A stretch of 16,063 nucleotides of DNA from a virus (taxonomy: Duplodnaviria; Heunggongvirae; Uroviricota; Caudoviricetes), in IMG/VR virus record IMGVR_UViG_2609459830_000022, one strand, 5' to 3'. Under the pieces are notes generated by a model. It saw only the letters and a list, made by a program, of their open reading frames with translations. It was not told the DNA's origin and did no database searches. The translations under genes were made by a program, and so were the position numbers. Shown one piece after another: positions 1 through 16,063 of the stretch (position 1 is its first letter; every line of letters starts with the position of its first letter).

Positions 1-1461
1 ATGAAAAAATTACTGCGTCTTTTTTTCCCGCTCTCACTGCGGGTACGTTTTCTGTTGGCAACGGCTGCGGTAGTACTGGTGCTTTCGCTTGCCTACGGAA
101 TGGTCGCGCTGATCGGTTATAGCGTCAGTTTCGATAAAACTACGTTTCGGCTGTTACGTGGCGAGAGCAATCTGTTCTATACCCTTGCGAAGTGGGAAAA
201 CAATAAGTTGCATGTCGAGTTACCCGAAAATATCGACAAGCAAAGCCCCACCATGACGCTAATTTATGATGAGAACGGGCAGCTTTTATGGGCGCAACGT
301 GACGTGCCCTGGCTGATGAAGATGATCCAGCCTGACTGGCTGAAATCGAATGGTTTTCATGAAATTGAAGCGGATGTTAACGATACCAGCCTCTTGCTGA
401 GTGGAGATCATTCGATACAGCAACAGTTGCAGGAAGTGCGGGAAGATGATGACGACGCGGAGATGACCCACTCGGTGGCAGTAAACGTCTACCCGGCAAC
501 ATCGCGGATGCCAAAATTAACCATTGTGGTGGTGGATACCATTCCGGTGGAGCTAAAAAGTTCCTATATGGTCTGGAGCTGGTTTATCTATGTGCTCTCA
601 GCCAATCTGCTGTTAGTGATCCCGCTGCTGTGGGTCGCCGCCTGGTGGAGTTTACGCCCCATCGAAGCCCTGGCAAAAGAAGTCCGCGAACTGGAAGAAC
701 ATAACCGCGAATTGCTCAATCCAGCCACAACGCGAGAACTGACCAGTCTGGTACGAAACCTGAACCGATTGTTAAAAAGTGAACGCGAACGTTACGACAA
801 ATACCGTACGACGCTCACCGACCTGACCCATAGTCTGAAAACGCCACTGGCGGTGCTGCAAAGTACGCTGCGTTCTCTGCGTAGTGAAAAGATGAGCGTC
901 AGTGATGCTGAGCCGGTAATGCTGGAGCAAATCAGCCGCATTTCACAGCAAATTGGCTACTACCTGCATCGTGCCAGTATGCGCGGCGGGACATTGCTCA
1001 GCCGCGAGCTGCATCCGGTCGCCCCACTGCTGGACAATCTCACCTCAGCGCTGAACAAAGTGTATCAACGCAAAGGGGTCAATATCTCTCTCGATATTTC
1101 GCCAGAGATCAGCTTTGTCGGTGAGCAGAACGATTTTGTCGAGGTGATGGGCAACGTGCTGGATAATGCCTGTAAATATTGCCTCGAGTTTGTCGAAATT
1201 TCTGCAAGGCAAACCGACGAGCATCTCTATATTGTGGTCGAGGATGATGGCCCCGGTATTCCATTAAGCAAGCGAGAGGTCATTTTCGACCGTGGTCAAC
1301 GGGTTGATACTTTACGCCCTGGGCAAGGTGTAGGGCTGGCGGTAGCCCGCGAAATCACCGAGCAATATGAGGGTAAAATCGTCGCCGGAGAGAGCATGCT
1401 GGGCGGTGCGCGGATGGAGGTGATTTTTGGTCGCCAGCATTCTGCGCCGAAAGATGAATAA
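1..1461 (+). CDS. phoQ: Sensor histidine kinase PhoQ (complete, 486 aa)
   Basis: Full-length ORF with ATG at 1 and TAA at 1459-1461. Two N-terminal hydrophobic segments flank a periplasmic domain with the acidic patch EDDDDAE, followed by HAMP, the H-box ([10 protein letters not shown]) and a C-terminal ATPase domain (DDGPGIP, GQGVGL). The sequence is recognised as enterobacterial PhoQ. Confidence 0.97.
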
Positions 1462-1974: not shown

Positions 1975-2062
1975 GTGAATATATTCCGGCCTTCTGGTTA
2001 ACAGTCCTCAGATGTGAGGGATGTAGCCAGCGCAATTTTGCGTTATCGGGAATATCAGCAAG

Positions 2063-2344
2063 TTACCGCCGTAACCGCTCCGGCTTCTTCCAGTGGTACG
2101 TGATTTTCTCCTTCTCCCGATACAGTTCAACGCGGCGATTGTAGGCCAGCATTTCCAGAACGCGGATCCGTATGTCGCGCATATCCGCATCATTAAGCTG
2201 GATACCATCACGGCGCATCACCTCAGCAACAACACGCGCATAATTTTCGGCTGTCACGCTGTCCGGCTGCGTGGTCTGTTCGTCAGCCTGCTGGCTGATT
2301 CCAGAGACGCGGCGGATTAATCGCAGTATTTCGGCTTCTGTCAT
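2063..2344 (-). CDS. Hypothetical protein (93 aa), last gene of the packaging operon
   Basis: ATG at 2344 preceded by GAGGT Shine-Dalgarno at 7 nt spacing, 14 nt downstream of the TerL stop. No recognisable motif. Confidence 0.5.
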   Translation of the reverse strand: MTEAEILRLIRRVSGISQQADEQTTQPDSVTAENYARVVAEVMRRDGIQLNDADMRDIRIRVLEMLAYNRRVELYREKEKITYHWKKPERLRR

Positions 2345-2357
2345 GCTGCTGACCTCA

Positions 2358-4019
2358 TTACACCCCGCTAAATTCTTCCAGTTTCTGGCGGTGGCTGTCG
2401 CTTATATCAAAAGCAAAATCCTCATGCTCTGCCTGGAATGTACCAAACGCCATCAGCGCCGCTACGCTCGGGTCTATCTTGTTCGGTGATTTTTTCTTGT
2501 TCGGCTTGATATTGGCGTTCGCGTCACTCTGCATCACGACGTTACTCATCGACCAGGACAACACCGGATCGCCACGATGCACAATCACCCTGCGGTTAAC
2601 AAAAACTTCGAACGATTTCGCCGCCGGACTGAATCTGAGGTAGGTTTGCGGGAACGGCTCCACCTCAAAACCTGCCCCCTGTAATTGCGTTCTGAGATGC
2701 GTGGCGTTCCACGTATCAAAGCCCACCAGCCTGATATTAAATTTCTCCGCGTCCTGCATGATGTCATCTCTGATCCGGTCGTAATCAATGCAGTCGCCAG
2801 GCGTTGTGCGTATCCAGCCTGCTTTAGCCCACTGACGATAGATGGCGCGGTTTTTATTGGCGGGGTTCTGTAGCTGAAATTCCGGCAGATAGTGACGGGA
2901 AACCAGCATAATGGTTTTACCGACCGGAAAGGCATAGCACACGCTGGAAATATCGCTGGTTGATGATAAGTCCAGCCCCGCGTAACACTCCTGGCCGTGT
3001 AAATCTTCCTCCGTGAACGTTCCGGCACACTCAGCCCATGCGCCGTTACCCATCCACGGGGTAGTCCCCTGACACCAGATATTAAATCGCTTTGTCATCA
3101 TCTCCACCCACTGCGACGGAATACCCCGCGCTTTCTGGATGGTTGAGGCCAGTTTTTCACGATCCACGGAAACATCGATGTTAGGGTTAGCCTTTATCCA
3201 CATCGCCGGATCATCAACCTCGTTTTCGTCGTCCAGCTCGTAAATCAGTACAAAAATTGAATCGTTGACCTCTTCGCCGTCCAGGATCTGGCAGCAATAA
3301 TCATAGTGCTGCTTACAGGCTGAAACGACGTTACTGCCCGATGTAGTAATGGCAAATAACAGCCCTTCGGGACGTGCGCCCATCCCCAGCTCAAGCGCGG
3401 AATAAACGCCGTTATCGGGGTGTAGGTGGTATTCGTCCACGATGGAAAGGCTGGGGTTTGTTCCCTCGATGGTTGCCGCTTTTGCTGCCAGCGGCTTTAA
3501 CAGGCTGTTGCTTTTCGGGTGCATCACCTTGTGGGCCTGAATATTCACCCGCCTGCGTAACGGTCGGGATAAAAGGCACATCTGACGCGCATCATCAAAA
3601 ACGATCCGCGCCTGGTCACGGCTCACCGCTGCGGTGTAAATATCCTGCTGCCCGTTCTCCATAATCAGAAACCAGTTAGCCAGAATCGCGGCGGTCGTGG
3701 ATTTCGCATTTTTGCGCGGCACTTCGATAAAGGCGCTCGTATATTTGCGCCGTCCGGTGGCCTTAACCTTAAAGCCGAGGATGCACGCAAAGGCGAACTG
3801 CTGCCACGGCTCCAGCTCAATGGGGCTACCGCGCATTGCGCCTTTTACGTGCGGGCACACCCTGGAAAAGGCAATAAACCGCTCCACAACCTCACGATCG
3901 AACGTGTAAAGGGGGCTTTCAAGGTCCGAAAAGTACCGTTTAACGGCCTGTTTCAGCCGTTTACAGGCCGGAATTTTGCCCGTTTTTACGTCTTCTGCGT
4001 ACTTATTCCAGGCGGTCAA
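2358..4019 (-). CDS. Terminase large subunit (HK97/Terminase_1 type), 553 aa
   Basis: Length and overall pattern typical of phage TerL with an N-terminal ATPase region and C-terminal nuclease region. The start is TTG at 4019 preceded by a GAGGA Shine-Dalgarno, overlapping the TerS 3-prime end by 17 nt. Confidence 0.88.
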   Translation of the reverse strand: MTAWNKYAEDVKTGKIPACKRLKQAVKRYFSDLESPLYTFDREVVERFIAFSRVCPHVKGAMRGSPIELEPWQQFAFACILGFKVKATGRRKYTSAFIEVPRKNAKSTTAAILANWFLIMENGQQDIYTAAVSRDQARIVFDDARQMCLLSRPLRRRVNIQAHKVMHPKSNSLLKPLAAKAATIEGTNPSLSIVDEYHLHPDNGVYSALELGMGARPEGLLFAITTSGSNVVSACKQHYDYCCQILDGEEVNDSIFVLIYELDDENEVDDPAMWIKANPNIDVSVDREKLASTIQKARGIPSQWVEMMTKRFNIWCQGTTPWMGNGAWAECAGTFTEEDLHGQECYAGLDLSSTSDISSVCYAFPVGKTIMLVSRHYLPEFQLQNPANKNRAIYRQWAKAGWIRTTPGDCIDYDRIRDDIMQDAEKFNIRLVGFDTWNATHLRTQLQGAGFEVEPFPQTYLRFSPAAKSFEVFVNRRVIVHRGDPVLSWSMSNVVMQSDANANIKPNKKKSPNKIDPSVAALMAFGTFQAEHEDFAFDISDSHRQKLEEFSGV

Positions 4020-4359
4020 GCTCGTCCTCTTCTTCTGTTTCCGGTGGATTTTTACGGCGGCTTATCGGGTCAAAACCGAGCAAAGAGGCCATTTTTATCA
4101 TCACTCTTTCAGCGTCGGATTTTGCGCTTAATGCGGGGTTTCTGCTCTCGCCGCCCTGACTGTTAACAATGCTGAACCCGCGCGCCGCAAGGTCTGCAAC
4201 GGCTTTCCGGTAAATGGAGTAATTGACGCAATACAGTTCCAGATTACTCCAGTCGGCGGGAGTCAGGTCACCCCGTTCCGCAAGCTGCCGCGATTTTTCC
4301 CGCCACTGCTTCACGGCGATATCATCCAGGTAGGCGGGGGCTTTCGGTGGTCTTGCCAT
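4003..4359 (-). CDS. Terminase small subunit, P27 family (118 aa)
   Basis: Sequence pattern (DLTPADWSNLELYCVNYSIYRKA ... LLGFDPISRRK) matches the P27-family phage TerS. ATG at 4359, TAA at 4003-4005, positioned directly upstream of TerL. Confidence 0.82.
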   Translation of the reverse strand: MARPPKAPAYLDDIAVKQWREKSRQLAERGDLTPADWSNLELYCVNYSIYRKAVADLAARGFSIVNSQGGESRNPALSAKSDAERVMIKMASLLGFDPISRRKNPPETEEEDELDRLE

Positions 4360-4399
4360 GCTTATTTTTTCGCCAGATTATTTTTCAAAAAATTCCCGT

Positions 4400-4480
4400 G
4401 CATAAAAATTTGAGGAGGCGTTCGGTTCCCGGCGGGGTCGGGTTTGTCCTGAAAACGCCCCCCACCCCGTCATACAGCCT
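4400..4480. other. Candidate cos / packaging-initiation region between HNH and TerS
   Basis: A 289-bp non-coding gap sits between the HNH stop (4649) and the TerS start (4359). It contains a G/C-rich segment (ccggcggggtcgggtttgtcct ... cgccccccaccccg) flanked by A/T-rich sequence. The HNH-cos-TerS-TerL arrangement is the standard layout in HK97-like cos phages. Confidence 0.4.
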
Positions 4481-4648
4481 CATCAGCGATTGCGGAAACA
4501 TTCCATAACCTCGCGGTCACGGTCGTTTAATCGCGTCGCTGTGATGCGTTCTGCGCGTCCTGATGCTTTATCTTTATGCCCTGTTTCCTGTGCCTTCCAT
4601 GCGTCACGCTGCCTTATCAGTCCACGGATAAGGCGGTTTTGTTCCCGC

Positions 4649-5089
4649 TCATTCATCAGCGTCATACATCCAGTTATTGCGGTTAGCGGCCCGTTCTTCC
4701 TCTTCACGAAATCCACCTGCGGCACGCTTGCTTTTTGTTGCCGGATCAAGCCATTTCGTTTTCTGGTTATGACACGCCTGGCACAATGGCTGATGGTTCC
4801 ATTCGGGCCAGAAGAGAACATCATCACCGCCATTAATCGGGATAATGTGATCCACCACCACGGCGGGCGTATATATCCCCTTCTCAAGGCATCGCACGCA
4901 TAACGGGTTTTTACTCAGATACATGGCGCGGTATTTGTCCCACTGTCTGGAGTACCCACGCGCGCGGCGGTGTCCTCGTCTGGCATCCTCTGCACGCCAT
5001 GCCGCCCGCCTGTGCTCCTCACACTTGCCGGACTTCACGCGCCTGTTACAGCCTGGTTCTGTGCATCGTCTTAATGGTTGCCACGGCAT
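4649..5089 (-). CDS. HNH endonuclease (146 aa), packaging-associated
   Basis: Cys pairs (CTEPGC, CVRC, CQAC) plus the D-H ... N ... H motif (VVVDHIIPINGG ... WNHQPLCQACHNQK). ATGA overlap with the upstream connector gene. Confidence 0.85.
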   Translation of the reverse strand: MPWQPLRRCTEPGCNRRVKSGKCEEHRRAAWRAEDARRGHRRARGYSRQWDKYRAMYLSKNPLCVRCLEKGIYTPAVVVDHIIPINGGDDVLFWPEWNHQPLCQACHNQKTKWLDPATKSKRAAGGFREEEERAANRNNWMYDADE

Positions 5090-5385
5090 CAGTACACCCC
5101 CACATCACGGTAAGCCGTCCAGAGTGCGCCTATCGTCATGGGTACGTGTGTTTTTGCGTTATCCGCGACAATCTGGCGATTCTCATACAGGTGAGCGATA
5201 AACATCATGCAGCCAATCTTTATGGCTGGCGTGAACCCCAGCCCGTCATCAAAGCGCCTGCCTATGTGTATCTGGCACGCCTCAAGCGATGCGGCAATGT
5301 ATCCGCTGATTAACTGGTCTTCCTCGTCGCCATCGATGCGGCAATGGAGTTTCACTTCTTCCAGGGTGATAAGTTCTTCTGTCAT
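5089..5385 (-). CDS. Head-tail connector protein (gp6-like), 98 aa
   Basis: N-terminal LITLEEVKLHCRIDGDEEDQLISGYIAAS pattern typical of the Phage_connect_1 family. ATGA overlap with the upstream adaptor gene. Confidence 0.72.
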   Translation of the reverse strand: MTEELITLEEVKLHCRIDGDEEDQLISGYIAASLEACQIHIGRRFDDGLGFTPAIKIGCMMFIAHLYENRQIVADNAKTHVPMTIGALWTAYRDVGVY

Positions 5386-5720
5386 TTTTCCGCGCCCTCA
5401 CGACAAAGAATTTCAAGGCGTGTCCTGGCGGCATCCGGCAGCGGCTGCCCGATGATATTCAGTACACGCCCCGCCAGCGGCCCCGTATTGACCTTTATCC
5501 GGCTGGTGGCGTTGATGTCCTTCCGGTACCGTATCCAGATCCTTACCGTACCAATCGCCAGCTCTGCACCCGATGAAATGGCCTCCTTGCTGCTGACCAT
5601 GTTCACGCTTGCCCAGAGTGTGTGACCGTCCTCCCACGTTTCGAGTATTTCGCCCGTCATGGCTCTGGTCTGTTTCAGGGTCTGAATCGTTACCCTGTCA
5701 CGCAGTCGCCCTATGTTCAT
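5382..5720 (-). CDS. Head-tail adaptor / head closure protein (112 aa from ATG 5720; alternative ATG at 5762)
   Basis: RVTIQ ... ETWEDGHTLWASV ... pattern of phage head-tail joining proteins. The ATG at 5720 overlaps the portal stop (ATGA coupling). Confidence 0.68.
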   Translation of the reverse strand: MNIGRLRDRVTIQTLKQTRAMTGEILETWEDGHTLWASVNMVSSKEAISSGAELAIGTVRIWIRYRKDINATSRIKVNTGPLAGRVLNIIGQPLPDAARTRLEILCREGAEK

Positions 5721-6928
5721 TCCGGTTTTTCTCCCTCGCTGATTTTTACTTCCTGTTTCCATGCCTGGCTGAACTCATCACCACCATCACGCGGAGACAA
5801 CCCTTCTCGTTCGCGGGCTTCGTTCGGGCACATAACACCGGATTTGATGCCTCGCTCATAGGTGGCAAAGCGTTCGCCAGGAGTGGCCCGTAACAGGTCC
5901 GCGCTGTCAAACTCCACCTGATACCGGATACCAGGTACAGGTGAGGCCACCAGCAGGGCGTTTTTTATCTGCTGCTCAAAGTTCGCCAGCCACGGGCGCA
6001 TCGTCATGGTGAGAAATGCGCGGCTTGCCTCGCTGAAATTGCTGTAGGTGCTGTTGCTGTATTCCTGCAAAAAAATCGGCGAGACGTTGAACATTCGGGC
6101 GATGTCTTCAATGGTGAAGCGACGGGAGGCCAGCCATTCAGCATCCTGATTACTCATGCCCAGCTGCTGATAGCTCATACCCCCTTCAAGGATGGGCGTT
6201 TTTCCGGCGTTTCTGGCCCCTTTATAGCGTTCCAGTGCGGCTAATGCCTGTTTGCCTTTCACGCCGTCCAGCCATTCGCCTGACGTGATAACCCCTGCCG
6301 CCATCATGCCATCACGCATCACGCTCGCGCCGTGGCGTTGTTGGGCCAGCCCAAGCCCCAGCGATTCGCGGCAGATGGTTACAGGTGAGCGCCCCATAAA
6401 GCCGTCATCCGTGGAGTAACGAAGGTGAAGTACTTCCCACGGTAAATAGTTGCGGGTGTTTCCGGTGTAGGCGTCAGTGATGCAATAGCGCCAGTTATGC
6501 TCACCTGTCTGCTCCACGTTCACCGACTGCGGCGGGTAAGGATGCAAAGCGATCGGAAAACCATCACGCCCCCACTGAATCACCGCATAAGCATTACCGT
6601 TTAACAGGCAGTGGCGGATCATCATTCGCTTAAACTGGTAGGGGGTCTGCCATGCGTTCGGGCGCTCGTTGAGGATGTGATCGACCGGATGAGAATCAAG
6701 CCACTCGCGGGCCTCCTTCCCCTTCTCATTGCGTACCAGGTACAGGTAACACGGCATGGTAGCCACCGCCTCAGAGATGACCGTGACGGCGTTCATGACG
6801 GCGGGCAGTGATTCCGCTGTCCCCGATGATACGTACTCACCCGCCCCCGTGTTCGATGTGCCAGCCAGCGCCATAAACTCATCAAGCGTCATGCTGCGCT
6901 GCTCTTTTTTTCTTCTGAAAGGCCACAT
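5717..6928 (-). CDS. Portal protein, HK97 family (403 aa)
   Basis: Size and sequence pattern of HK97-type portal. ATG at 6928 preceded by a GGGGGTG Shine-Dalgarno, 1 nt after the protease stop. Confidence 0.9.
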   Translation of the reverse strand: MWPFRRKKEQRSMTLDEFMALAGTSNTGAGEYVSSGTAESLPAVMNAVTVISEAVATMPCYLYLVRNEKGKEAREWLDSHPVDHILNERPNAWQTPYQFKRMMIRHCLLNGNAYAVIQWGRDGFPIALHPYPPQSVNVEQTGEHNWRYCITDAYTGNTRNYLPWEVLHLRYSTDDGFMGRSPVTICRESLGLGLAQQRHGASVMRDGMMAAGVITSGEWLDGVKGKQALAALERYKGARNAGKTPILEGGMSYQQLGMSNQDAEWLASRRFTIEDIARMFNVSPIFLQEYSNSTYSNFSEASRAFLTMTMRPWLANFEQQIKNALLVASPVPGIRYQVEFDSADLLRATPGERFATYERGIKSGVMCPNEAREREGLSPRDGGDEFSQAWKQEVKISEGEKPE

Positions 6929-6929
6929 A

Positions 6930-7502
6930 TCACACCCCCGCTAAATCCACCCACCAGCGGCGATTATCCGCACGCGGCATTTTTTCGGGGTGCTGCTCAT
7001 ACAGGGAACGGCGGGCCAGCTCCACGCCGGAATCGGGGTAAGCCGGTACCGATGTAACGGTAATTTCGTACAGTTCCGCCACCAGCACGGTGCGCACGCA
7101 TGGATCTGTTGTGGTATCCCATACATCCTTACGGGAGCGAAAGCCAAAGCTCATCCCCGAGATGTCCCCACGCTTAACCAGTTCGATAACGTCGCGCCCT
7201 GTACTGGTATCCGGTGGGGTCAGTTCAAAGCGTAACCCTGTTTCGTCCTCTTCCAGTTTCAGCGTGCCGGAACGGGTGCGCCCCAGTAACATGCTGTGGT
7301 CATGCTCATACAGGCCGCGAACGTCATTACCCGCCGCAAGCCACTCAGTAAACGCCCCCCGCTGGAATTTTTCGTAAAACTCCCCCCATAGCAGTTCTGA
7401 AAGCTTATCCCAGCGAACAACGTAGCCCGTCAGCGTACCGGCTCCGCTGGTAGTGATTTCCGATGACCGGATTTCCATACTCTTCATAATTTTTTCACCC
7501 AT
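6930..7502 (-). CDS. Prohead protease, HK97 family (S78); true start may be ATG 7487
   Basis: HDHSMLLGRT and GDISGMSFGF motifs characteristic of HK97 prohead protease. The first ATG (7502) lacks a Shine-Dalgarno; the second ATG (7487) has GGTGA upstream. Confidence 0.88.
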   Translation of the reverse strand: MGEKIMKSMEIRSSEITTSGAGTLTGYVVRWDKLSELLWGEFYEKFQRGAFTEWLAAGNDVRGLYEHDHSMLLGRTRSGTLKLEEDETGLRFELTPPDTSTGRDVIELVKRGDISGMSFGFRSRKDVWDTTTDPCVRTVLVAELYEITVTSVPAYPDSGVELARRSLYEQHPEKMPRADNRRWWVDLAGV

Positions 7503-7541: not shown

Positions 7542-8699
7542 TTAATCGTCGTCCTGTGGCAGTTCCAGAATCTTGATCGCGTTCGAATCCACCACGCCAC
7601 CGCCTAAATATTTCTGCGTGAAAATTTTGATAAAGCCCGGCTCTGTCAGGTTGTCCGGTCTGGTGCGCACGCCCGTTTCATGATCAACGATGTAATAACC
7701 GCGTTTGAAGTCACCCAGGGCGATAACGTTATCCGGCATAAATTCCAGATACTCCACCGGAAGCCCCAGCAACGTATCAGGATCACCCGCCTGTAAACGG
7801 TCGCGCCAGATGTAATCGCCGTTCGCGTTCTTCACCTTCTGAAGTTTTGCCGCCGTCGTGGAGTTAACCACCCAGACCGCGTTTTTGCGGTATTTTTTAC
7901 GTAATGCAAATTTCAGGTCGATCAGCGGGTCCGCAGATGTCCACGCCAGAGATTCGGAAGGTTTAATTACCTGCAACGTACCAAAATCACGCTCTTTGTC
8001 GTTCTTCTCTGCACGGGGTACGGATAAAAAACCTTTTGCTTTTTTGTCACCGTCGCCCACAACCAGATCGCTTTCTTCGGTTTCCGTGAAGGTGTCGCCA
8101 ATCTCACCCGTCAGCCATGAAAGGATGTCCACATCGGAAAAATCCACGATTTCCTGTGTGGTGCGCGGGTACGCATAGACCGGATACAGCTTAATGCTCA
8201 CCTCGTTAATCTGCGGGGTGCTGGTCTGTTCGCGTGCCTTACCCTCTTCACCGTGGTTAACGGTCGCACCGCCAGCGGAAACAAGCTGCTTAAACTCGTT
8301 GCTGCTGATTTTCTTCACGGTACAGATGCGGCGCATGGTGGATTCATCCGTCAGCATTCGCATGATTTCGGTGTTCAGTTCAGGGATAACGGTATAACCA
8401 CCATCAGCGGGAACGCCTGTACTTAATGCGCGGGTTTCACCTGTCAGAATGTAGTTGCGGAGTTCTGCGGGGTCAGTGGTCTGACTGCTTTTACCTGGCT
8501 TGCTGCGCTCTTCGTCTGCAATGGCTTCAAGGCGGGAAATGTCTTTATCGAGGGATTCAGCTTTAGCGCGTAATTCGTCAAATTTTGCGCCCTCAGCATC
8601 GTTAAGACTGCGGTTTTCTTTTTCCGCGTTCTCCAGCATGTCGCGCATCTGATTTTTAATGGCGGTTTTCTGCTGGCGTAATTCGATTATTCTCGGCAT
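7542..8699 (-). CDS. Major capsid protein, HK97 fold, with N-terminal coiled-coil scaffold (delta) domain; 385 aa from ATG 8699
   Basis: N-terminal charged helical region (IIELRQQKTAIKNQMRDMLENAEKENRSLNDAEGAKFDELRAKAESLDKDISRLEAIADEE) followed by a typical HK97-like capsid body. The upstream extension to 8747 in the ORF track starts at GTG and runs through a hairpin, so ATG 8699 is preferred. Confidence 0.9.
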   Translation of the reverse strand: MPRIIELRQQKTAIKNQMRDMLENAEKENRSLNDAEGAKFDELRAKAESLDKDISRLEAIADEERSKPGKSSQTTDPAELRNYILTGETRALSTGVPADGGYTVIPELNTEIMRMLTDESTMRRICTVKKISSNEFKQLVSAGGATVNHGEEGKAREQTSTPQINEVSIKLYPVYAYPRTTQEIVDFSDVDILSWLTGEIGDTFTETEESDLVVGDGDKKAKGFLSVPRAEKNDKERDFGTLQVIKPSESLAWTSADPLIDLKFALRKKYRKNAVWVVNSTTAAKLQKVKNANGDYIWRDRLQAGDPDTLLGLPVEYLEFMPDNVIALGDFKRGYYIVDHETGVRTRPDNLTEPGFIKIFTQKYLGGGVVDSNAIKILELPQDDD

Positions 8700-8736
8700 A
8701 AAAAAAGTCCTGGGATTAAGTAAGGAACTCCAGGAC
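8700..8736 (-). promoter_or_regulatory. Stem-loop plus U7 immediately 5-prime of the capsid start codon; the stem contains the only AGGA Shine-Dalgarno-like motif
   Basis: Minus-strand RNA: GUCCUGG (16-nt loop) CCAGGAC UUUUUUU AUG. Stem arms at 8707-8713 and 8730-8736, T7 at 8700-8706. Confidence 0.5.
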
Positions 8737-8913
8737 GCGGCAAACACTCAACCGTTTTTCATAAGGAAATCAGCAATCGCACCGATCGTTTTCCCGCCTG
8801 GTAATGAATATTGGCGAGAACATTAACAGGCGGAAAAGTGGCCCCAGCGTCCTGGCACCACGGGCGAGAATAATCATGATTCAGTTCGGGTAAAATATGC
8901 CGATCCGCTCAGT

Positions 8914-10253: not shown

Positions 10254-10447
10254 CTCTCACTTTTTCGCCTCACTTTTTCAAGCGTCTCACTTCGTCGCAG
10301 CTGGGATTTTCGGTTTTTCTATGTGTGTGTTTCATAAGTATTTTTTTACCCCTCACTTTTGAGGATGTATACAGGTCGAAAAGTGAGGGAGAGCAGGCTA
10401 ATTTTGGCCCTCTTTCTATCCACCTCGCTTTTGCTCCTCACTTTTAT
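10254..10447. repeat. Iteron cluster, putative replication origin (7 copies of CTCACTTTT, one inverted, flanking an A/T-rich core)
   Basis: Copies at about 10256, 10269, 10286 (imperfect), 10352, 10379 (inverted), 10424 (imperfect) and 10437. The A/T-rich stretch is at 10300-10350. The cluster sits immediately 3-prime of the primase-helicase gene (stop 10444-10446). Confidence 0.7.
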
Positions 10448-11844
10448 AGCGGTGCTACATCATCCCCATCGATACGAATAACCCCATCTTTTTCCAGCTT
10501 GTACAGCCAGCGCCGGAAGTTTTTCATTTCATACCCCAGCTTTTTCATGTCATCACGTAACAGCGGGATCGTGCACTTGTCGCCGTTCTGTGTGCGTGAA
10601 CGGATGCACCCCCATAGCGCGGTATGGTTTTCCGTCTTGTTCCCTGCCTCCTCGATGCGCTCCAGTTCAACAGGAGGGCGCGGATCATCCACCACCACCA
10701 GCGACGTGATTAATTCACCGTCAGCGTCGGTAAAAAGCTCCACCACGCGTAAGTCATATGCGGCTTCTTTGAGTTCCTCCGCGTCCTTCATTTTGGTGCA
10801 TGAGATAACCAGCGCTTCGCTTCCTGCGTCCTCCCTGCGTATCCGGTATTCAGCATCCAGCGAAGCACGAAATGCACTGGAACCGCGCGCGCCTTTCGTC
10901 TCATCCTTGCCGGAATGGTGAACCACCAGCACCGTGGCCCCTGTGCGTCGTTTCAGTTCGTCACAACCACGGATAAACGCCCCCATATCACGGGAATCAT
11001 TTTCATCATTCCCACCAAAGCAACGCGCCAGCGTATCCAGAATAATCATGCGTACAGGTTTACCCGTTTCCCGCTCCACCTGACGGGCAGCGATAACCAT
11101 TTCATCAACATCAAGCGGGGCAGCCGGAAAGATGGGGCGGTTTACCAGATACAGATTTTTCACCTGCTCATCGTGCACAACCTCCCAGGCTTTTACACGA
11201 CGCGGAACACCTATACCGCCTTCACCGACCACATAGAGAACCGCACCATGTGCAACCCTGCGGCCTCCCCACTGGCGACCAGTGGCAACATGGCACGCCC
11301 ACGATCCGGCAAGGAATGATTTATAGGACCCGCTAGCCCCGTATATGCTGCATAGCGATACCGCCGGAATAATCCCCTTAACCACGTAATCCAGTTGCGT
11401 GTCGTATCCGGTAGATCCAACGCTCATCGGTAGCGTGGTTTTTCGCTGGTGGTTTTTTTCTTCCGCCGGCTCTTTCCCACGCACCCGTTCCAGGTATTCG
11501 CGCCAGTTCTCCCGCATATGGCTGTGCATCCCTTCGGGGTAATAATTCGCATCAGTTACACCCGCCGCCGCCAGCTTGTGCGCAATGGCATTAATATTTG
11601 ATGGCCTGATGTGGCCTGCCTTGTACAGCCGGACACAATAGCGCCCCTCGTCGATGATTCTCAGGTCTGCCAGTTCATCCAGTTGATCATCAGCCAGCAC
11701 AACGGGAGGCACATTATCGCCAGCCAGTCGCCCGTCCTGTTCCTGCCACTGTTTCGCATGTGCCCAGGCATCACTACCCGCAAAAATAATGACTTCGGTC
11801 ATCTTGTCGTAAGGCTGTTTTTTTAAGTTCGGTGCGCTTTTCAT
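10444..11844 (-). CDS. Replication initiator: Toprim-like N-domain + RecA-like (RepA/AAA_25-type) ATPase + C-terminal winged-helix; PICI pri-rep-like
   Basis: P-loop-like IYGASGSYKSF, RepA-like segment ILDTLARCFGGNDENDSRDMGAFIRGCDELKRRTGATVLVVHHSGKD, N-terminal VIIFAGSDAWAHA Toprim-like segment. Followed by the iterons. Confidence 0.78.
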   Translation of the reverse strand: MKSAPNLKKQPYDKMTEVIIFAGSDAWAHAKQWQEQDGRLAGDNVPPVVLADDQLDELADLRIIDEGRYCVRLYKAGHIRPSNINAIAHKLAAAGVTDANYYPEGMHSHMRENWREYLERVRGKEPAEEKNHQRKTTLPMSVGSTGYDTQLDYVVKGIIPAVSLCSIYGASGSYKSFLAGSWACHVATGRQWGGRRVAHGAVLYVVGEGGIGVPRRVKAWEVVHDEQVKNLYLVNRPIFPAAPLDVDEMVIAARQVERETGKPVRMIILDTLARCFGGNDENDSRDMGAFIRGCDELKRRTGATVLVVHHSGKDETKGARGSSAFRASLDAEYRIRREDAGSEALVISCTKMKDAEELKEAAYDLRVVELFTDADGELITSLVVVDDPRPPVELERIEEAGNKTENHTALWGCIRSRTQNGDKCTIPLLRDDMKKLGYEMKNFRRWLYKLEKDGVIRIDGDDVAPL

Positions 11845-12140
11845 TTCTTGCCCCTGAATCCGTTAACCATGGTTTTCAGCTTCTGGATGTTTGCCCGTGC
11901 CCTGGCGTTGCTGGTGGGCACGTTATGCGGCGCGGTCTGTACCAGAGAAAAATCACGCCGGAACTGATAAACAGGCATCACGCAATCATATTCGTAACCT
12001 TCACGGCGGTAAGTTACGCACCGTCCCGCCACGCCCTTAATCATTACCGTGCCGCCGTACTGGTCGCGGTAAATATCACCGCGCATAAATTTAGGGTGAG
12101 TGTTGCCACTGGCAGTTAAGCCAGAATATTTAAGTTTCAT
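11841..12140 (-). CDS. Hypothetical protein (99 aa), translationally coupled to the primase-helicase
   Basis: ATG at 12140; its stop overlaps the primase start (ATGA). Confidence 0.5.
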   Translation of the reverse strand: MKLKYSGLTASGNTHPKFMRGDIYRDQYGGTVMIKGVAGRCVTYRREGYEYDCVMPVYQFRRDFSLVQTAPHNVPTSNARARANIQKLKTMVNGFRGKK

Positions 12141-12145
12141 TATTT

Positions 12146-12379
12146 TTATTCTCCGGTGTGCTGTTCGTTATATCTGTCGTGCAATGTCTCTATTTCCTGC
12201 AACTCATTTATTACAGGCTCAAGAAGCGTTATTAATGATGTAATAATCCGCGTTTTTTTTGCATTACGTTCATTATCGCCAAAGGATTCAAGGCACATCC
12301 GCAATATTTCGTACATACCTTCAGCGTAAGCAAGGGCACTAAATGCGCGGTCTATTGTTTCAAGATAAATATCACGCAT
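12146..12379 (-). CDS. Small hypothetical protein (77 aa), member of a tandem paralog trio
   Basis: ATG at 12379 with GGGGA Shine-Dalgarno. Shares the MRD start and an EI-R ... I--LI pattern with the next gene. Confidence 0.45.
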   Translation of the reverse strand: MRDIYLETIDRAFSALAYAEGMYEILRMCLESFGDNERNAKKTRIITSLITLLEPVINELQEIETLHDRYNEQHTGE

Positions 12380-12380
12380 A

Positions 12381-12602
12381 TTAATCCCCGTCCGTTGTTT
12401 TTCTTAAAACAGCTTCTGTCACGAAATCAGCATAGTTAGCGGCAATATCAAGAATATTTAGCCCTGTACCTCTGTGCTCATCAGTGCAAAGAAAGAAAAA
12501 AGCCACCCGCATAATTTCAGATATTGACGAAAGCGCATCAGCCGCATCATCAGGAACGCCGGAAAATTCTTGTTTCAGGGAATTAAAACGATCATCACGC
12601 AT
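12381..12602 (-). CDS. Small hypothetical protein (73 aa), paralog of the 77-aa and 80-aa neighbours
   Basis: ATG at 12602 immediately preceded by a G9 homopolymer on the coding strand (C9 at 12605-12613 on plus). Confidence 0.45.
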   Translation of the reverse strand: MRDDRFNSLKQEFSGVPDDAADALSSISEIMRVAFFFLCTDEHRGTGLNILDIAANYADFVTEAVLRKTTDGD

Positions 12603-12817
12603 AACCCCCCCCCATTTTCACAATCAGCAACAAGAATATTTTTAGCGTCATTCAGCGACCGCGTTGCGATGTATCGGATACATTCCAGGGCGAACGTTGT
12701 CCGGTCTTTCTGTTCTTCTCCCTGCGCAAGCTCTGCCGTGCATTCAATATCAATAAGCGCGTGCATCAGCGTAGTGAGCGCGGCGGCGGCTGCGTCCGGT
12801 GTGGTTTTATTGCACAT
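12575..12817 (-). CDS. Small hypothetical protein (80 aa from ATG 12817), third paralog
   Basis: ATG at 12817 preceded by a strong AGGAGG Shine-Dalgarno. Segment TPDAAAAALTTL resembles VPDDAADALSSI of the 73-aa gene. Its C-terminus (GGG) reads through the G9 tract. Confidence 0.4.
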   Translation of the reverse strand: MCNKTTPDAAAAALTTLMHALIDIECTAELAQGEEQKDRTTFALECIRYIATRSLNDAKNILVADCENGGGLCVMIVLIP

Positions 12818-12980
12818 GGCACACCTCCTGACGAATACGGGCGACAAAAATCAGATGTGCGTGCGGCAGCTGTGCACGTGCTTCGCGCTCAGTGGCAGCG
12901 GTAACGGTGAATATTGCAATACTGTCTGTCAGGCACTGCATAAAGCGCCAGACAAAATAAGGGCGTGTGAATACAGCCAT
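12807..12980 (-). CDS. Icd-like small protein (host cell-division-inhibitor-like), copy B, 57 aa
   Basis: ATG at 12980 with TAGGAGCC Shine-Dalgarno. Motif FVWRF ... TAATEREARAQLP ... LIFVARIRQ is shared with copy A. Family assignment is from memory of the conserved motif. Confidence 0.45.
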   Translation of the reverse strand: MAVFTRPYFVWRFMQCLTDSIAIFTVTAATEREARAQLPHAHLIFVARIRQEVCHVQ

Positions 12981-13266
12981 GTGAAAGGCTCCTACAGTAA
13001 TTTTAAGGAGTCTCGCTACTACGCTGTCAAACATGGTGGCGAGACGTAACAGGGTTGACAGACTGGCACTGTAGAGACCAGCGAGCGCAAAGGCTCCCCC
13101 GTTACGCCCCGCCATAATGCGGGTATGGGTAGGTTTACGGACACAAAAAAACCGCATATCGGAATGTAAGCGGCTGTCCGCTACAGTATTCAGGCTGTCA
13201 AACCCGGTCGCCATGTGGGCGACGGGGGAAGCATACAGCCCCGTGATAATTTTTTGCAAGCGGTTT

Positions 13267-13464
13267 TTACGCATGATGTGACCCCTGACGAATACGGGCG
13301 GCAAATACAGCAACACAACCTGACGGGCAACGGCTACGCGCTTCGCGTTCCGTCCAGGCGGTTACGTGGATGATTTGAGATTCTCCGGCACTCAGTGCCA
13401 GAAAACGCCACACAAAGGCCGTTTGTGTGTGTACAAGGTGTGGTATATGATTTACGGCAACCAT
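13267..13464 (-). CDS. Icd-like small protein, copy A, 65 aa
   Basis: ATG at 13464 with TAGGAGCC Shine-Dalgarno. Motif FVWRF ... TAWTEREARSRCP ... AVFAARIRQ. Confidence 0.5.
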   Translation of the reverse strand: MVAVNHIPHLVHTQTAFVWRFLALSAGESQIIHVTAWTEREARSRCPSGCVAVFAARIRQGSHHA

Positions 13465-13537
13465 AACGGCTCCTAGTTTACGTTGTTGGTTAGAAGCCCT
13501 GCGAGTGGTAATGACACTTGCGGGGCTTTGCTTTTTT
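13458..13537 (+). ncRNA. Candidate small cis-antisense RNA overlapping the start and Shine-Dalgarno of Icd-like copy A
   Basis: Plus-strand promoter-like TTGTGT (13423-13428), 17-nt spacer, TATGAT (13446-13451). Plus-strand-specific terminator at 13496-13537. No plus-strand ORF lies in between. Confidence 0.3.
13496..13537 (+). terminator. Rho-independent terminator, plus-strand specific
   Basis: 12-bp stem gccctgcgagtg / cacttgcggggc (two G-U wobbles on the plus RNA, which are C-A and U-C mismatches on the minus RNA), 7-nt loop, then TTTGCTTTTTT. Confidence 0.6.
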
Positions 13538-13553
13538 AAGTGCTCTTGTGTTA

Positions 13554-13600
13554 AGGTGACCACCTAACAATGGAAAGGCTAATTCAATAGGTGACCACTT
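13554..13600. promoter_or_regulatory. Two operator-like palindromes AGGTGACCACCT (13554-13565) and AGGTGACCACTT (13589-13600) in the divergent control region
   Basis: Inverted-repeat arms AGGTG/CACCT with centres 35 bp apart. The second overlaps the Shine-Dalgarno and TTG start of the RHH gene. A TTGACA hexamer on the minus strand (13605-13600) lies between them. Confidence 0.5.
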
Positions 13601-13790
13601 GTCAACAATCAAACGCGATAAAAGCCCTAAAGGGGACGGGCAATCCCCACAATTCAGAATGCGAATTTCTCCAGAGCTAAAAGAGCAATTCGACAAAGAA
13701 GCACAGAGCGACGGCATAAGCCTAGCCAACTGGCTTAAAGAGTTGGGGCGCACTGAACTAAAGCGGCGCGGCATAGAACCCAAAGGATAA
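13599..13790 (+). CDS. Arc/Mnt-like ribbon-helix-helix DNA-binding protein (63 aa, TTG start)
   Basis: SPQFRMRISPELKEQFDKEAQSDGISLANWLKELG matches the beta-strand / helix A / helix B pattern of P22 Arc (PQFNLRWPREVLDLVRKVAEENGRSVNSEIYQRV). Start must be upstream of the PQF strand; TTG at 13599 has AGGTGA 4 nt upstream. Confidence 0.55.
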   Translation: MSTIKRDKSPKGDGQSPQFRMRISPELKEQFDKEAQSDGISLANWLKELGRTELKRRGIEPKG

Positions 13791-13847
13791 AAACTATCAG
13801 CGCCGTGGTGTGAGGTATTACGGCGCATTGCTATGCAGGACAACACA

Positions 13848-14021
13848 ATGACCGATAAAGAATTGACCAAAACATTATCACCGGCACGGAAAAGACGGCG
13901 CAGAAAGATAGAGCATGAATCAGAAAGATTCGCGCCATGTGCTTTTGCCCTTGAGCAATTCCTTAAAGAGTATAGGGAAAAGCGCTCATTGCAGGTATGG
14001 CAACGAACTGAACCAGACTGA
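13848..14021 (+). CDS. Small basic hypothetical protein (57 aa from ATG 13848; ORF track starts at ATG 13833)
   Basis: ORF downstream of the RHH gene in the same plus-strand unit. AGGA 8 nt before ATG 13848. Arg/Lys-rich N-terminal half. No recognised family. Confidence 0.3.
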   Translation: MTDKELTKTLSPARKRRRRKIEHESERFAPCAFALEQFLKEYREKRSLQVWQRTEPD

Positions 14022-14115
14022 TTGCATTGCCCACCAGCCTGATAGCGGCTATCATCCCCGTGCTTATGTTTGGGATCACATACACATAAGGCGCAGCGGG
14101 TTATCTGTTCAGAAA

Positions 14116-14144
14116 GGCGGCTCCATTTCGGGGCCGCTTTTTTT
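14116..14144 (+). terminator. Rho-independent terminator closing the plus-strand RHH unit
   Basis: ggcggctcc-atttc-ggggccgc followed by T7. The stem has one G-U wobble on the plus RNA that is a mismatch on the minus RNA. Confidence 0.7.
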
Positions 14145-14290
14145 ATGCCTGAAAAACCCCAATTTTGTGGTTTTCCAGTCTCACCAGGGCGAACGAATCC
14201 CCGCCCACGTTCTGGCGTATATTCAATCTTCATGGTTATAGCTCTGTGTTCAGATGATTGATGTGTGGCGGCTGCGTGCCGCCAGCGTGA

Positions 14291-14479
14291 TTAATGAACT
14301 GCCTTGCAGCTATCCTTCCAGGCCAGAACCTCGGATAAAGACCAGCCAACGGAACGACCGCCAAGTTTACGACGTGATGGGAATTGTCCGGCCTTTTCCA
14401 GGCGGTAGCGACACGTACGGCTAAGGCCGGTTAGTTTTTCGCATTCTTTTTCACGTATAAACCGATCAGTGCTTAACAC
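14291..14479 (-). CDS. alpA: AlpA-family phage/island regulatory protein (62 aa, GTG start)
   Basis: LTGLSRTCRYRLEKAGQFPSRRKLGGRSVGWSLSEVLAWK matches the AlpA helix-turn-helix family pattern. A G7 tract serves as the Shine-Dalgarno. Located directly after the integrase gene, as in P4-like and PICI elements. Confidence 0.8.
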   Translation of the reverse strand: MLSTDRFIREKECEKLTGLSRTCRYRLEKAGQFPSRRKLGGRSVGWSLSEVLAWKDSCKAVH

Positions 14480-14520
14480 TATTGCCCCCCCTTTCGTTTC
14501 TTAAAGAGTCATCAGGTGTC

Positions 14521-14543
14521 TTATTGTGTCGTATTGTTCCCGC
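14521..14543. repeat. Phased TTGTT repeat cluster, site D (2 units, TTGT on plus strand)
   Basis: ttATTGTGTCgtATTGTTCCcgc, near-identical to the reverse complement of site A. It lies 45-65 bp upstream of the alpA start. Confidence 0.55.
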
Positions 14544-14753
14544 TAGAGTGATGAATGGCAAATATTGAGGATGTATGATTTACAGAAAATGAAACAGTAA
14601 GAATAAAATCTTTTAAATTCATGTTAATACAAAGGCATAAAATATTGTTTCATGCCTTTTTTCTCGCTCTTTAAAGAGTGATTCGCTAGTGTATAAAAAA
14701 CCAGTGACACATTAAAAATCAGCCACTTATAAATCTGTATGCTTTTTCGCCTC

Positions 14754-14803
14754 TTGTTCGTGGTTGTTCCACATTGTTGCTCATTGTTGCACGTTGTATC
14801 TGT
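14754..14803. repeat. Phased TTGTT repeat cluster, site C (5 tandem 10-bp units)
   Basis: TTGTTCGTGG TTGTTCCACA TTGTTGCTCA TTGTTGCACG TTGTATCTGT with exact 10-bp register, in the int-alpA intergenic region. Confidence 0.65.
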
Positions 14804-14845: not shown

Positions 14846-16063
14846 TTATTTTCTTCTGGCTACTGGTAGCGTGGTTACGTTTTCATGTGTTCCCGCCAGT
14901 ATCCCTAACCGCTCCGTCCACATATCCAGCGCATTGCGTTTAGCATCCAGATAACGGGAATGATTATAAACTCGCTGCATTCCTGGCATCTGGTGGCCTG
15001 TAAGCTGCTCCACGACATGCGGATCAACGCCTAAATCGTTCAGCATGGTTGTAAAGGTGCGCCGGATGTCATGCAGTGACCAGTGAGGATGATTAAGCCT
15101 CCTGTGCGCTAATCTTCCATACTGCGATACGCTGGCCTCCTGTTTCACTTCCCCCAGCAATAAGCCCGTGTGCCTGTTCTGCTCCACCAGCTGCGTGACG
15201 AACGGCAGGATCGCTTCCGGTATGGGCCGGAATATTGCGACCTTCGTTTTGCTGTGCTCCTTCGGAACGGTCCATAGCATTTCCGTAAAATCCCACTCCC
15301 CGATCTCCGATAACCTCAGTTCTACCGTTCTGGCTCCGAAGACAATCAGGAGGCGGATTAACGCGACGTAGTAAGGGGAGAATATTTTTTTGTCCAGTGC
15401 CTGCAATAATTCGCCAAGTTCTTTGTTACTTAAGACACGTTCGCTTATATCCGGTTTTTTCCCAACGTCCGCCACGTTCAGATCGTCCAGAACGTTGCTG
15501 ATTGCATAGCGCCGCCTACGGCAGAACTTAAGCGCCTGTTTGCACGCCTGTAGCACGAATCCGGCAGTAACAGGCGTTCGCTTTGCCACCTGGTCAAAAC
15601 AGGCCAGCCAGTGCCGTAGCTCGCATTTATCCAGCGGCATAGCACCAATCTGCTGTATTACGTGATTATTAAGTCGCCTTTTCAGGGCGATATAATCCAC
15701 GCGGTTTTCCTTTACGTAATACTCAAGCCAGTAGGTGAGCGCATCGCCAACCGTTACCGGCTTTAACGCTTCCTGTACGGTGTAATTAAGCTCATGACGT
15801 GGATTTTTCCCCTCTGCCAGCCATGCGCGACACTGGGCGGCTTTTTCCCTGGCTGATTTCAGGCTCAGATCAGGATAACTTCCCAGCTTAATGCGTTCGG
15901 GTCGTGTCTCCCTTCCCGTTCCGGCCCTGTATGTGAAATACCAGGTCAATTTCCCTGATGTTAAATATTTCACGCTCAGGTTTCCGCCATCACTATAAAA
16001 CGTGTTTTTCTCCGCTGGCTTACCATGAAGTTTCCTTAGCAAGGTATCGCTCAGTTTGTTCAT
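14846..16063 (-). CDS. int: Tyrosine recombinase / integrase, P4-type with N-terminal arm-DNA-binding domain (405 aa)
   Basis: N-terminal FYSDGGNLSVKY ... WYFTYR arm-binding-type domain. Catalytic region with GARTVELR, HDIRRTF and the HSRY tyrosine. ATG is the last 3 nt of the window (16061-16063). Confidence 0.93.
   Translation of the reverse strand: MNKLSDTLLRKLHGKPAEKNTFYSDGGNLSVKYLTSGKLTWYFTYRAGTGRETRPERIKLGSYPDLSLKSAREKAAQCRAWLAEGKNPRHELNYTVQEALKPVTVGDALTYWLEYYVKENRVDYIALKRRLNNHVIQQIGAMPLDKCELRHWLACFDQVAKRTPVTAGFVLQACKQALKFCRRRRYAISNVLDDLNVADVGKKPDISERVLSNKELGELLQALDKKIFSPYYVALIRLLIVFGARTVELRLSEIGEWDFTEMLWTVPKEHSKTKVAIFRPIPEAILPFVTQLVEQNRHTGLLLGEVKQEASVSQYGRLAHRRLNHPHWSLHDIRRTFTTMLNDLGVDPHVVEQLTGHQMPGMQRVYNHSRYLDAKRNALDMWTERLGILAGTHENVTTLPVARRK

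Follow-up and report, generated by a model that had tools for sequence, protein, structure and literature searches.

A candidate cos site of the HK97 type between the HNH and TerS genes of a capsid-forming PICI of Escherichia coli

Introduction

What DNA signal does a capsid-forming PICI (cf-PICI) present to its own terminase? These satellites spread between species borrowing only phage tails, and their exclusive self-packaging has been demonstrated genetically; the DNA signal for it is undescribed in searchable papers. The question is addressed here for the interval between the HNH and TerS genes of one such element, carried on a 16,063-nt stretch of viral DNA (IMG/VR record IMGVR_UViG_2609459830_000022) that is referred to throughout as the window. 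Transfer of the family prototype, EcCIEDL933, needs its own HNH, TerS and TerL, the helper terminase being dispensable, and its published helpers are HK106 and HK446 (bioRxiv 10.1101/2022.09.08.507074). Experiments on EcCIEDL933 have also shown that a helper phage induces it and that its DNA enters small capsids of its own, the helper supplying only tails. HNH-assisted, cos-type self-packaging of cf-PICIs is already published, and the site described below fits this known picture and comes as no surprise. A search of freely searchable texts returned no report in which the cos sequence or cut positions of a cf-PICI had been mapped.

Results

Gene content of the element

The element in the window is an E. 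coli cf-PICI. The published layout of these islands runs from int through capsid, protease, portal, connectors and HNH to a gap followed by TerS and TerL, without tail genes (bioRxiv 10.1101/2022.09.08.507074), and the criteria for the group include an island size of ~10-18 kb (bioRxiv 10.1101/2025.02.11.637232). The assignment follows from a gene order that fits this layout and lacks tail genes: the element has an integrase, a replication module, capsid, protease, portal, connectors, HNH, TerS and TerL, and tail and lysis genes are absent from its gene set in the ORF map and Pfam/annotation of the window (Table 1).

Copies of the HNH-TerS region at 95-99% identity occur in 356 complete E. coli genomes, including O157:H7. 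The window element adjoins phoQ and the O157:H7 copy (locus L001) sits in tqsA; in the regions compared (10444-14800 of the window, 17000-23000 of L001) the replication gene is 466 aa in the window versus a 605-aa primase-family gene in the O157:H7 copy, and the cos regions of the two elements are 98.5% identical. Different replication and integration modules thus surround a near-identical cos region, which points to a packaging module common to such islands. Directly after terL, also on the minus strand, a 93-aa ORF (2063-2344) matches phrog_1561 (E 1.5e-55) and would stand third, counting from the left end, among the packaged genes. A search of solved structures gave no relative of the TerS sequence.

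Table 1. Positions of genes and of cos-region features in the window.
Feature	Position	Strand	Description	Evidence
Host phoQ	1-1461	plus
TerL	2358-4019	minus	HK97 type	Pfam TerL_ATPase + TerL_nuclease
TerS	4003-4359	minus	P27 family	Pfam Terminase_4 E 1.3e-23; TIGR01558
Leader and terS start	ATG at 4359	minus	short leader, then terS ATG, 56 nt after the predicted left end
Block B	4414-4378	minus	A/T-rich, CTCAAATTTTTATGCACGGGAATTTTTTGAAAAATAA; predicted first 37 nt of the packaged genome (+1..+37)
C-rich segment	4424-4415	minus	10 nt, CGAACGCCTC; predicted 3' cohesive end	family consensus CNNCCSCCYC
Spacer	4445-4425	minus	21 nt, fixed length, variable sequence, AAACCCGACCCCGCCGGGAAC
Block A	4468-4446	minus	conserved G-run element, GGGGTGGGGGGCGTTTTCAGGAC	viral-contig matches; TerS-selected loci
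Non-coding interval	4360-4482		123 bp, holding the whole cos region	ORF map, annotation, layout kept in relatives
Small basic protein gene	4483-4665	minus	60 aa	RefSeq CDS WP_000174068; phrog_3173 E 9.6e-35
HNH endonuclease	4649-5089	minus		Pfam HNH E 1.8e-8; phrog_144 E 8e-45; 39% identity to HK97 gp74, E 2e-19
Head-closure and connector proteins	5089-5762	minus		Pfam/annotation
Portal	5717-6928	minus		Pfam/annotation
Prohead protease	6930-7502	minus		Pfam/annotation
Major capsid protein (MCP)	7542-8747	minus		Pfam/annotation
Replication gene	10444-11844	minus	466 aa	assigned by position in the ORF map only
Integrase	14846-16063	minus		Pfam/annotation

A small gene upstream of the interval

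The original prediction took the 289 bp between HNH and TerS to be non-coding. The distance is correct, but a 60-aa gene lies inside the gap, so that the true non-coding DNA is only the 123 bp of 4360-4482. The ORF overlaps the HNH stop codon, is annotated by RefSeq in a locus of 98.5% identity, and ends with a stop codon 68 nt before the predicted top-strand cut. Its product is very basic and keeps the basic C-terminal motif RDRE(L/V)xECFRNR across genera of Enterobacterales despite codon changes (e.g., CGC to AGA), and NCBIfam holds no family for it. In relatives from Xenorhabdus, Gilliamella and the Pasteurellaceae the phrog_3173 gene is absent or replaced, and the cos layout is retained there.

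Layout and conservation of the non-coding interval

The G/C-rich sequence to which the original prediction drew attention is present on the plus strand at 4431-4469 (ggcggggtcgggtttgtcctgaaaacgccccccaccccg). Its bare composition is unremarkable, the GC fraction of 0.65 over 40 nt being exceeded elsewhere in the window, and GGGGTGGGGG with no more than one mismatch occurs once in the window against 1.08 occurrences expected by chance. GC content and the G-run were dropped as evidence, since neither is exceptional in the window and it is conservation that exceeds chance.

The 123-bp interval is conserved in ~250 viral contigs. A scan of viral contigs gave exact matches to block A in at least 120 of them, and among the matches whose sequence reaches that far, block B follows at a fixed distance. 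The reverse scan, begun with block B, retrieved block A likewise (at least 120 viral contigs), together with more distant relatives. As a control against circularity, 80 genome loci were fetched by the TerS protein alone, and the layout was present in 76 of them, spread over many genera of the Enterobacterales, Pasteurellales and Orbales, including Klebsiella, Citrobacter, Serratia, Erwinia, Pantoea, Yersinia, Proteus, Providencia, Xenorhabdus, Photorhabdus, Gilliamella, Frischella, Pasteurella, Haemophilus and Rodentibacter. The four exceptions comprise three loci without upstream sequence or with an unrelated upstream region and one with a deletion. Block A was found in 68 of the 71 unique TerS-selected loci.

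Conservation was measured as the mean majority-base fraction over these 71 unique loci. Block B, at 0.895, is the most conserved part of the gap, to be compared with 0.92, 0.96 and 0.688 for TerS codon positions 1, 2 and 3, and the spacer, at 0.577, falls below codon position 3. Non-coding block B is therefore conserved like the first two codon positions of TerS, and there is selection on non-coding DNA. The spacer keeps its length and not its sequence, so about half of what had been proposed as a G/C-rich core is neutral spacer. By analogy with the HK97 TerS site, which lies at +15..+29 and includes an A/T tract, block B is a putative TerS binding site; block A may have a role in packaging termination or in nuclease positioning.

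Several variations within the family deserve mention. The spacer (4425-4445) often contains a short dyad, with arms CCCG/CGGG in the window and CCTC/GAGG, GTCC/GGAC or GGTGCC/GGCACC in other lineages, and its hairpin potential (minimum free energy, MFE, of -2 kcal/mol or lower) is found in 63% of sequences versus 36% of shuffles, the sequences being interrelated; an all-against-all pair search found no single register that covaries. In a Shigella flexneri locus (L236; CP182556.1, ~1440-1510) a deletion, apparently the result of recombination between two short CCCCGCC repeats, joins the spacer GACCCCGCC to terS codon 8 CCCCGCCTACCTG and takes out the overhang and block B together with the start of terS; this element is probably unable to package. 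Upstream of terS in Xenorhabdus hominickii (L279) the G-run consists of five tandem GGGGTA units (GGGGTAGGGGTAGGGGTAGGGGTAGGGGTATC), the remaining layout being kept. Many copies of the TerS/cos module occur in Xenorhabdus (L246-L315), with at least six loci in each of X. innexi and X. kozodoii, several of them at contig breaks, which suggests unusually high copy numbers of cf-PICI-like elements in this genus.

Physical ends of related elements

The position of the cut can be approached through a linear metagenome contig of a relative, IMGVR_UViG_3300022664_000095 (loci L195 and L088; 15,518 bp). Its genes lie on one strand in the order TerS-TerL-...-int-...-MCP-portal-HNH-small ORF, with int internal, as expected of the excised, cos-cut mature form of a related element. 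The right end reads ...CAGGACAAAACCCAAGCCGCAAGGCAC (also given as ...GGGGTGGGGGAGGTTTTCAGGACAAAACCCAAGCCGCAAGGCAC), the last bases being ...GGCAC, and the left end reads CTCAAATTTTTACGCACGG... (also given as CTCAAATTTTTACGCACGGTGATTTTTTT...), starting at CTCAAATTTTT. There is no terminal overlap: the right end lies 21 nt past block A and the sequence restarts 10 nt further on. What is missing between the two ends is exactly the 10-nt C-rich segment, present in all integrated copies and reading CACCCGCCCC in close relatives, from which, and not from the same element, the identity of the ten bases was taken. These bases are lost between the ends, not duplicated, which argues for 3' overhang polarity, since end-repair during library preparation removes 3' overhangs.

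Transferred to the window, the coding strand across the predicted cuts would read ...GGGAAC-CGAACGCCTC-CTCAAATTT, with the G-run of block A ending 43 nt before the top-strand cut. We infer that the cohesive end is a 10-nt 3' overhang, CGAACGCCTC, at 4415-4424 on the minus strand. That cos lies within 4378-4468 is very likely. Exact nicks at 4414|4415 and 4424|4425 are reasonably likely, the nucleotide-level placement coming from one metagenome contig of a relative whose TerS is 83% identical and whose cos block differs from that of the window at several positions.

A second record, LR881103.1, derives from induced particles and has the same permutation, without 69 nt spanning the same spot; these 69 nt are present in contig L202, whose flanks are 100% identical where aligned. 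The ends of LR881103.1 lie 21 nt and ~38 nt from the predicted cuts, and the record supports the interval only, not the exact cut position. It was deposited (L002) as 'Escherichia phage vB_KppS-Ant' and matches a cf-PICI in size and in gene content; directly after terL lies a 2.3-kb gene whose annotation is 'tail length tape measure protein' (2036-4333). On gels, cf-PICI particle DNA runs at unit size and forms concatemers that have been attributed to cohesive ends (bioRxiv 10.1101/2025.02.11.637232).

Other apparent ends were set aside. L065, an isolate-genome viral contig that ends 22 nt after block A, was considered as a second physical end and rejected because its other end is exactly the integrase ATG, which marks it as a provirus excerpt cut at gene boundaries; in L024, L112, L126 and L129, what looked like ends are boundaries between storage chunks within longer contigs. 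Scans of viral contigs by leader type and by TerL word, and one scan of metagenome contigs, returned many integrated copies and no further exact ends.

Comparison with the cos site of HK97

HK97 has 10-nt 3' overhangs, its TerS binds +15..+29, including an A/T tract, and its HNH protein gp74 stimulates cleavage (PMC11331095, PMC9410871; for the TerS site, PMC11331095). Cos sites of this type are known also in HK022, HK106, HK75 and the mEp phages and require TerS gp1, TerL gp2 and HNH gp74; in the HK75 record the last 10 nt are annotated as the cos site. HK97 reads ...GGGCAGGGGGGGGGATCAAATCTTCAAAACCTTTGCCCCAAATGACCGCCGCCAAA | GTTTGAATTTAACGCTAACCCGATTTTTTTAG..., with the terS ATG at +50. In an ungapped alignment the HK97 left end coincides exactly with the left end derived from the contig, and the overhangs fall on the same 10 positions. 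The alignment score exceeds those of all 500 composition-matched shuffles (z 4-4.7), the shuffles being mononucleotide ones that do not preserve the G- and T-runs. A literature search for the HK97 overhang string produced nothing relevant.

The two sites share a position between HNH and terS, a terS ATG 50-60 nt after the left end, a C-rich 10-nt segment on the coding strand that is the 3' overhang of HK97 (CGCCGCCAAA) and the predicted one of the window (CGAACGCCTC), 11 nt between the cut and ACGC (+12..15; ATGC in the window), a T7 tract at +23..29, and a G-run at a nearly constant distance from the cut, 42 nt in HK97 (GGGCAGGGGGGGGG) and 43 nt in the window. TerL is homologous to HK97 gp2 (E 1e-46 at 27% identity across 506 aa, with Pfam TerL_ATPase and TerL_nuclease in both), as is the HNH protein to gp74 (Table 1). 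They differ in the TerS family, which is P27/Terminase_4 instead of gp1: BLASTP gave no similarity between the two proteins (E 2.4), and gp1 is without a Pfam match. They differ also in base identity, only 3/10 positions of the overhang, 6/15 of the TerS site and 16/37 of the left end being the same, and in the phrog_3173 gene between HNH and cos, where HK75 has a small CDS of unrelated appearance. Judged from the sequences compared, the site would work like HK97 cos with a different recognition subunit.

The expectation that cos would lie between HNH and TerS, as in HK97-like phages, is thus borne out by three observations, the contig ends of the relative 10 nt apart, the break in LR881103.1 and the ungapped alignment with HK97. 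The same cannot be said of the cohesive end that had been proposed. The G/C-rich core is made up of the conserved G-run element, which lies 43 nt before the cut, and of non-conserved spacer, and the resemblance seen to the G-rich cohesive ends of enterobacterial phages does not hold, the predicted end being a C-rich 3' overhang of the coding strand that is HK97-like and unlike the G-rich 5' ends of the lambda type.

Difference from the helper

The cos core of HK106 is essentially identical to that of HK97, with one extra G in the G-run, and the right-end region of HK446 is 95% identical to that of HK97. Between the window and HK106, 3/10 positions are identical in the overhang (-10..-1), 6/15 at the HK97 TerS-binding site (+15..+29) and 16/37 over +1..+37. 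The suggestion that the cos of the element differs from that of its helpers therefore agrees with what was found for HK97 and HK106 alike, 7/10 overhang and 9/15 TerS-site positions being different and the TerS proteins being without similarity. With a TerS unrelated to that of the helper and a differing TerS-site region and overhang, each terminase would be expected to cut and package only its own DNA, which offers a simple account of the published packaging independence of cf-PICIs and HK106.

Discussion

It is highly probable that the segment 4378-4468 (minus strand) is the cos site of the cf-PICI and works like HK97 cos. After excision and replication, the P27-family TerS of the element would bind A/T-rich block B (4414-4378) and position the HK97-type TerL and the gp74-like HNH nuclease. 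The strands would then be nicked 10 nt apart, the coding strand at 4415|4414 and its complement at 4425|4424, leaving the 10-nt 3' overhang CGAACGCCTC; these nick positions follow from the linear contig ends of the relative and from the alignment to HK97. Packaging would start at the left end, take in terS and terL, the att junction, int and then the replication and capsid genes, reach HNH, and halt at the next cos of the concatemer. The G-run block (4468-4446), which would lie 35-57 nt inside the right end, may aid termination or the positioning of the nuclease.

Other interpretations of the conserved interval have to be weighed against this one. Cos could lie in the gap with the G-rich core itself (4446-4473) as cohesive end in place of the C-rich 4415-4424. 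The particle-derived LR881103.1 has one end exactly behind block A (...GTTTTCAGGAC), no conserved motif catches the eye more than the G-run, and lambda-type phages have G-rich cohesive ends, all of which would suit such an end; yet the other end of LR881103.1 is 69 nt away, too far for an overhang, the clean linear contig stops 21 nt past block A and resumes 10 nt later, and HK97, HK106 and HK75, all with known ends, have the equivalent G-run in an internal position 42 nt away from the cut. This placement of the cohesive end is improbable. Headful packaging, with the conserved region as a pac site and permuted ends, is scarcely credible: a recognition site adjacent to TerS is typical of pac phages too, but the combination of HNH partner and HK97-type TerL is associated with cos packaging (Kala et al. 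2014, as cited in PMC11331095), the linear contig, of unit length, ends at unique positions without terminal redundancy, and the gels in bioRxiv 10.1101/2025.02.11.637232 show DNA of unit size besides concatemers that were ascribed to cohesive ends.

The blocks might instead belong to the transcriptional or translational control of terS and terL, as a promoter, a terminator/antiterminator or an mRNA structure, and not to a packaging site. Transcription passes through the region, which lies within or between genes of the operon immediately upstream of terS, pairing of the G-run with the C-runs is conceivable, and the weak excess of spacer hairpins (63% vs 36% of shuffles at MFE <=-2 kcal/mol) points the same way. 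Against this, the coding strand has no promoter- or terminator-like site and matches on the other strand are at chance level, Rfam gave nothing at E up to 1, folding of 4360-4490 as RNA did not surpass that of shuffles (z -1.1), and no consistent covarying helix was found. A purely regulatory role would also leave the contig ends and the base-for-base register with HK97 cos unexplained, and it is very unlikely, though a control role alongside cos could exist.

With 4378-4468 taken as an HK97-like cos, its relation to other systems can be considered. The cos of lambda (cosQ-cosN-cosB) offers a tripartite logic that is plausible here as well, with an upstream termination element, a nicking site and a downstream TerS-binding site beside terS; lambda differs in its 12-nt, G-rich 5' overhangs and in needing no HNH protein. 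EcCIEDL933 has the same gene order and belongs to the same family (Alqurainy et al., bioRxiv 10.1101/2022.09.08.507074; He et al., bioRxiv 10.1101/2025.02.11.637232). Classical E. coli PICIs, with a lambda-like cos, employ the helper terminase and Rpp, whereas the window element has its own terminase (bioRxiv 10.1101/2022.09.08.507074). Staphylococcal phi12/phiSLT and SaPIbov5 are alike in a cos packaging that depends on HNH, TerS and TerL and in that a satellite is packaged; as summarised in bioRxiv 10.1101/2022.09.08.507074, SaPIbov5 relies on the cos and terminase of its helper, whereas both belong to the element itself in the window. The Acinetobacter phage AbIPP1 (PQ201581.1, L468) has the order HNH, small CDS, a 123-nt gap (33260-33382) and terS, with a P27-family TerS, and its gap reads GGGGGAGGGTGGGTTTTGAC ... 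ATGACCGCCCCCTAAAGTACATTTTTACGAGCG, the G-run, ACCGCCCCC and TTTTTACG being laid out as in the window. It differs in being a full-size 33-kb phage with a TerS only ~38% identical, and its record has been re-set to start at terS. Since AbIPP1 has this layout, the cos design is not restricted to satellites or to the Enterobacterales.

These likenesses invite a joint reading, which is tentative and rather doubtful: that the layout is an old, portable cos module, that its specificity resides in few positions, and that the phrog_3173 protein is a cos accessory factor. The module may consist of a G-run, ~32 nt, a 10-nt C-rich 3' overhang and an A/T tract with ACG and a T-run, tied to the HK97-type pair of TerL and HNH, and it may have persisted with TerS proteins of no fewer than two unrelated families, HK97 gp1 on the one hand and the P27 proteins of cf-PICIs and of phages such as AbIPP1 on the other. 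The phrog_3173 protein, whose gene lies 68 nt before the cut, could assist cos as an accessory factor so far unrecognised. If the portable module is real, a few positions in +1..+37 and the overhang would account for the packaging specificity that separates satellite from helper.

The current picture of how cf-PICIs work is unchanged by this proposal. What a cos proposed at base level would bring is a specificity that can be tested, by cos swaps with HK106, minimal-cos plasmids and TerS footprinting, and it would also allow the design of cos-based transducing vectors. For the family as a whole, the arrangement of block A, 31 nt and block B would make a simple DNA marker by which cf-PICIs can be found and their mature genomes oriented.
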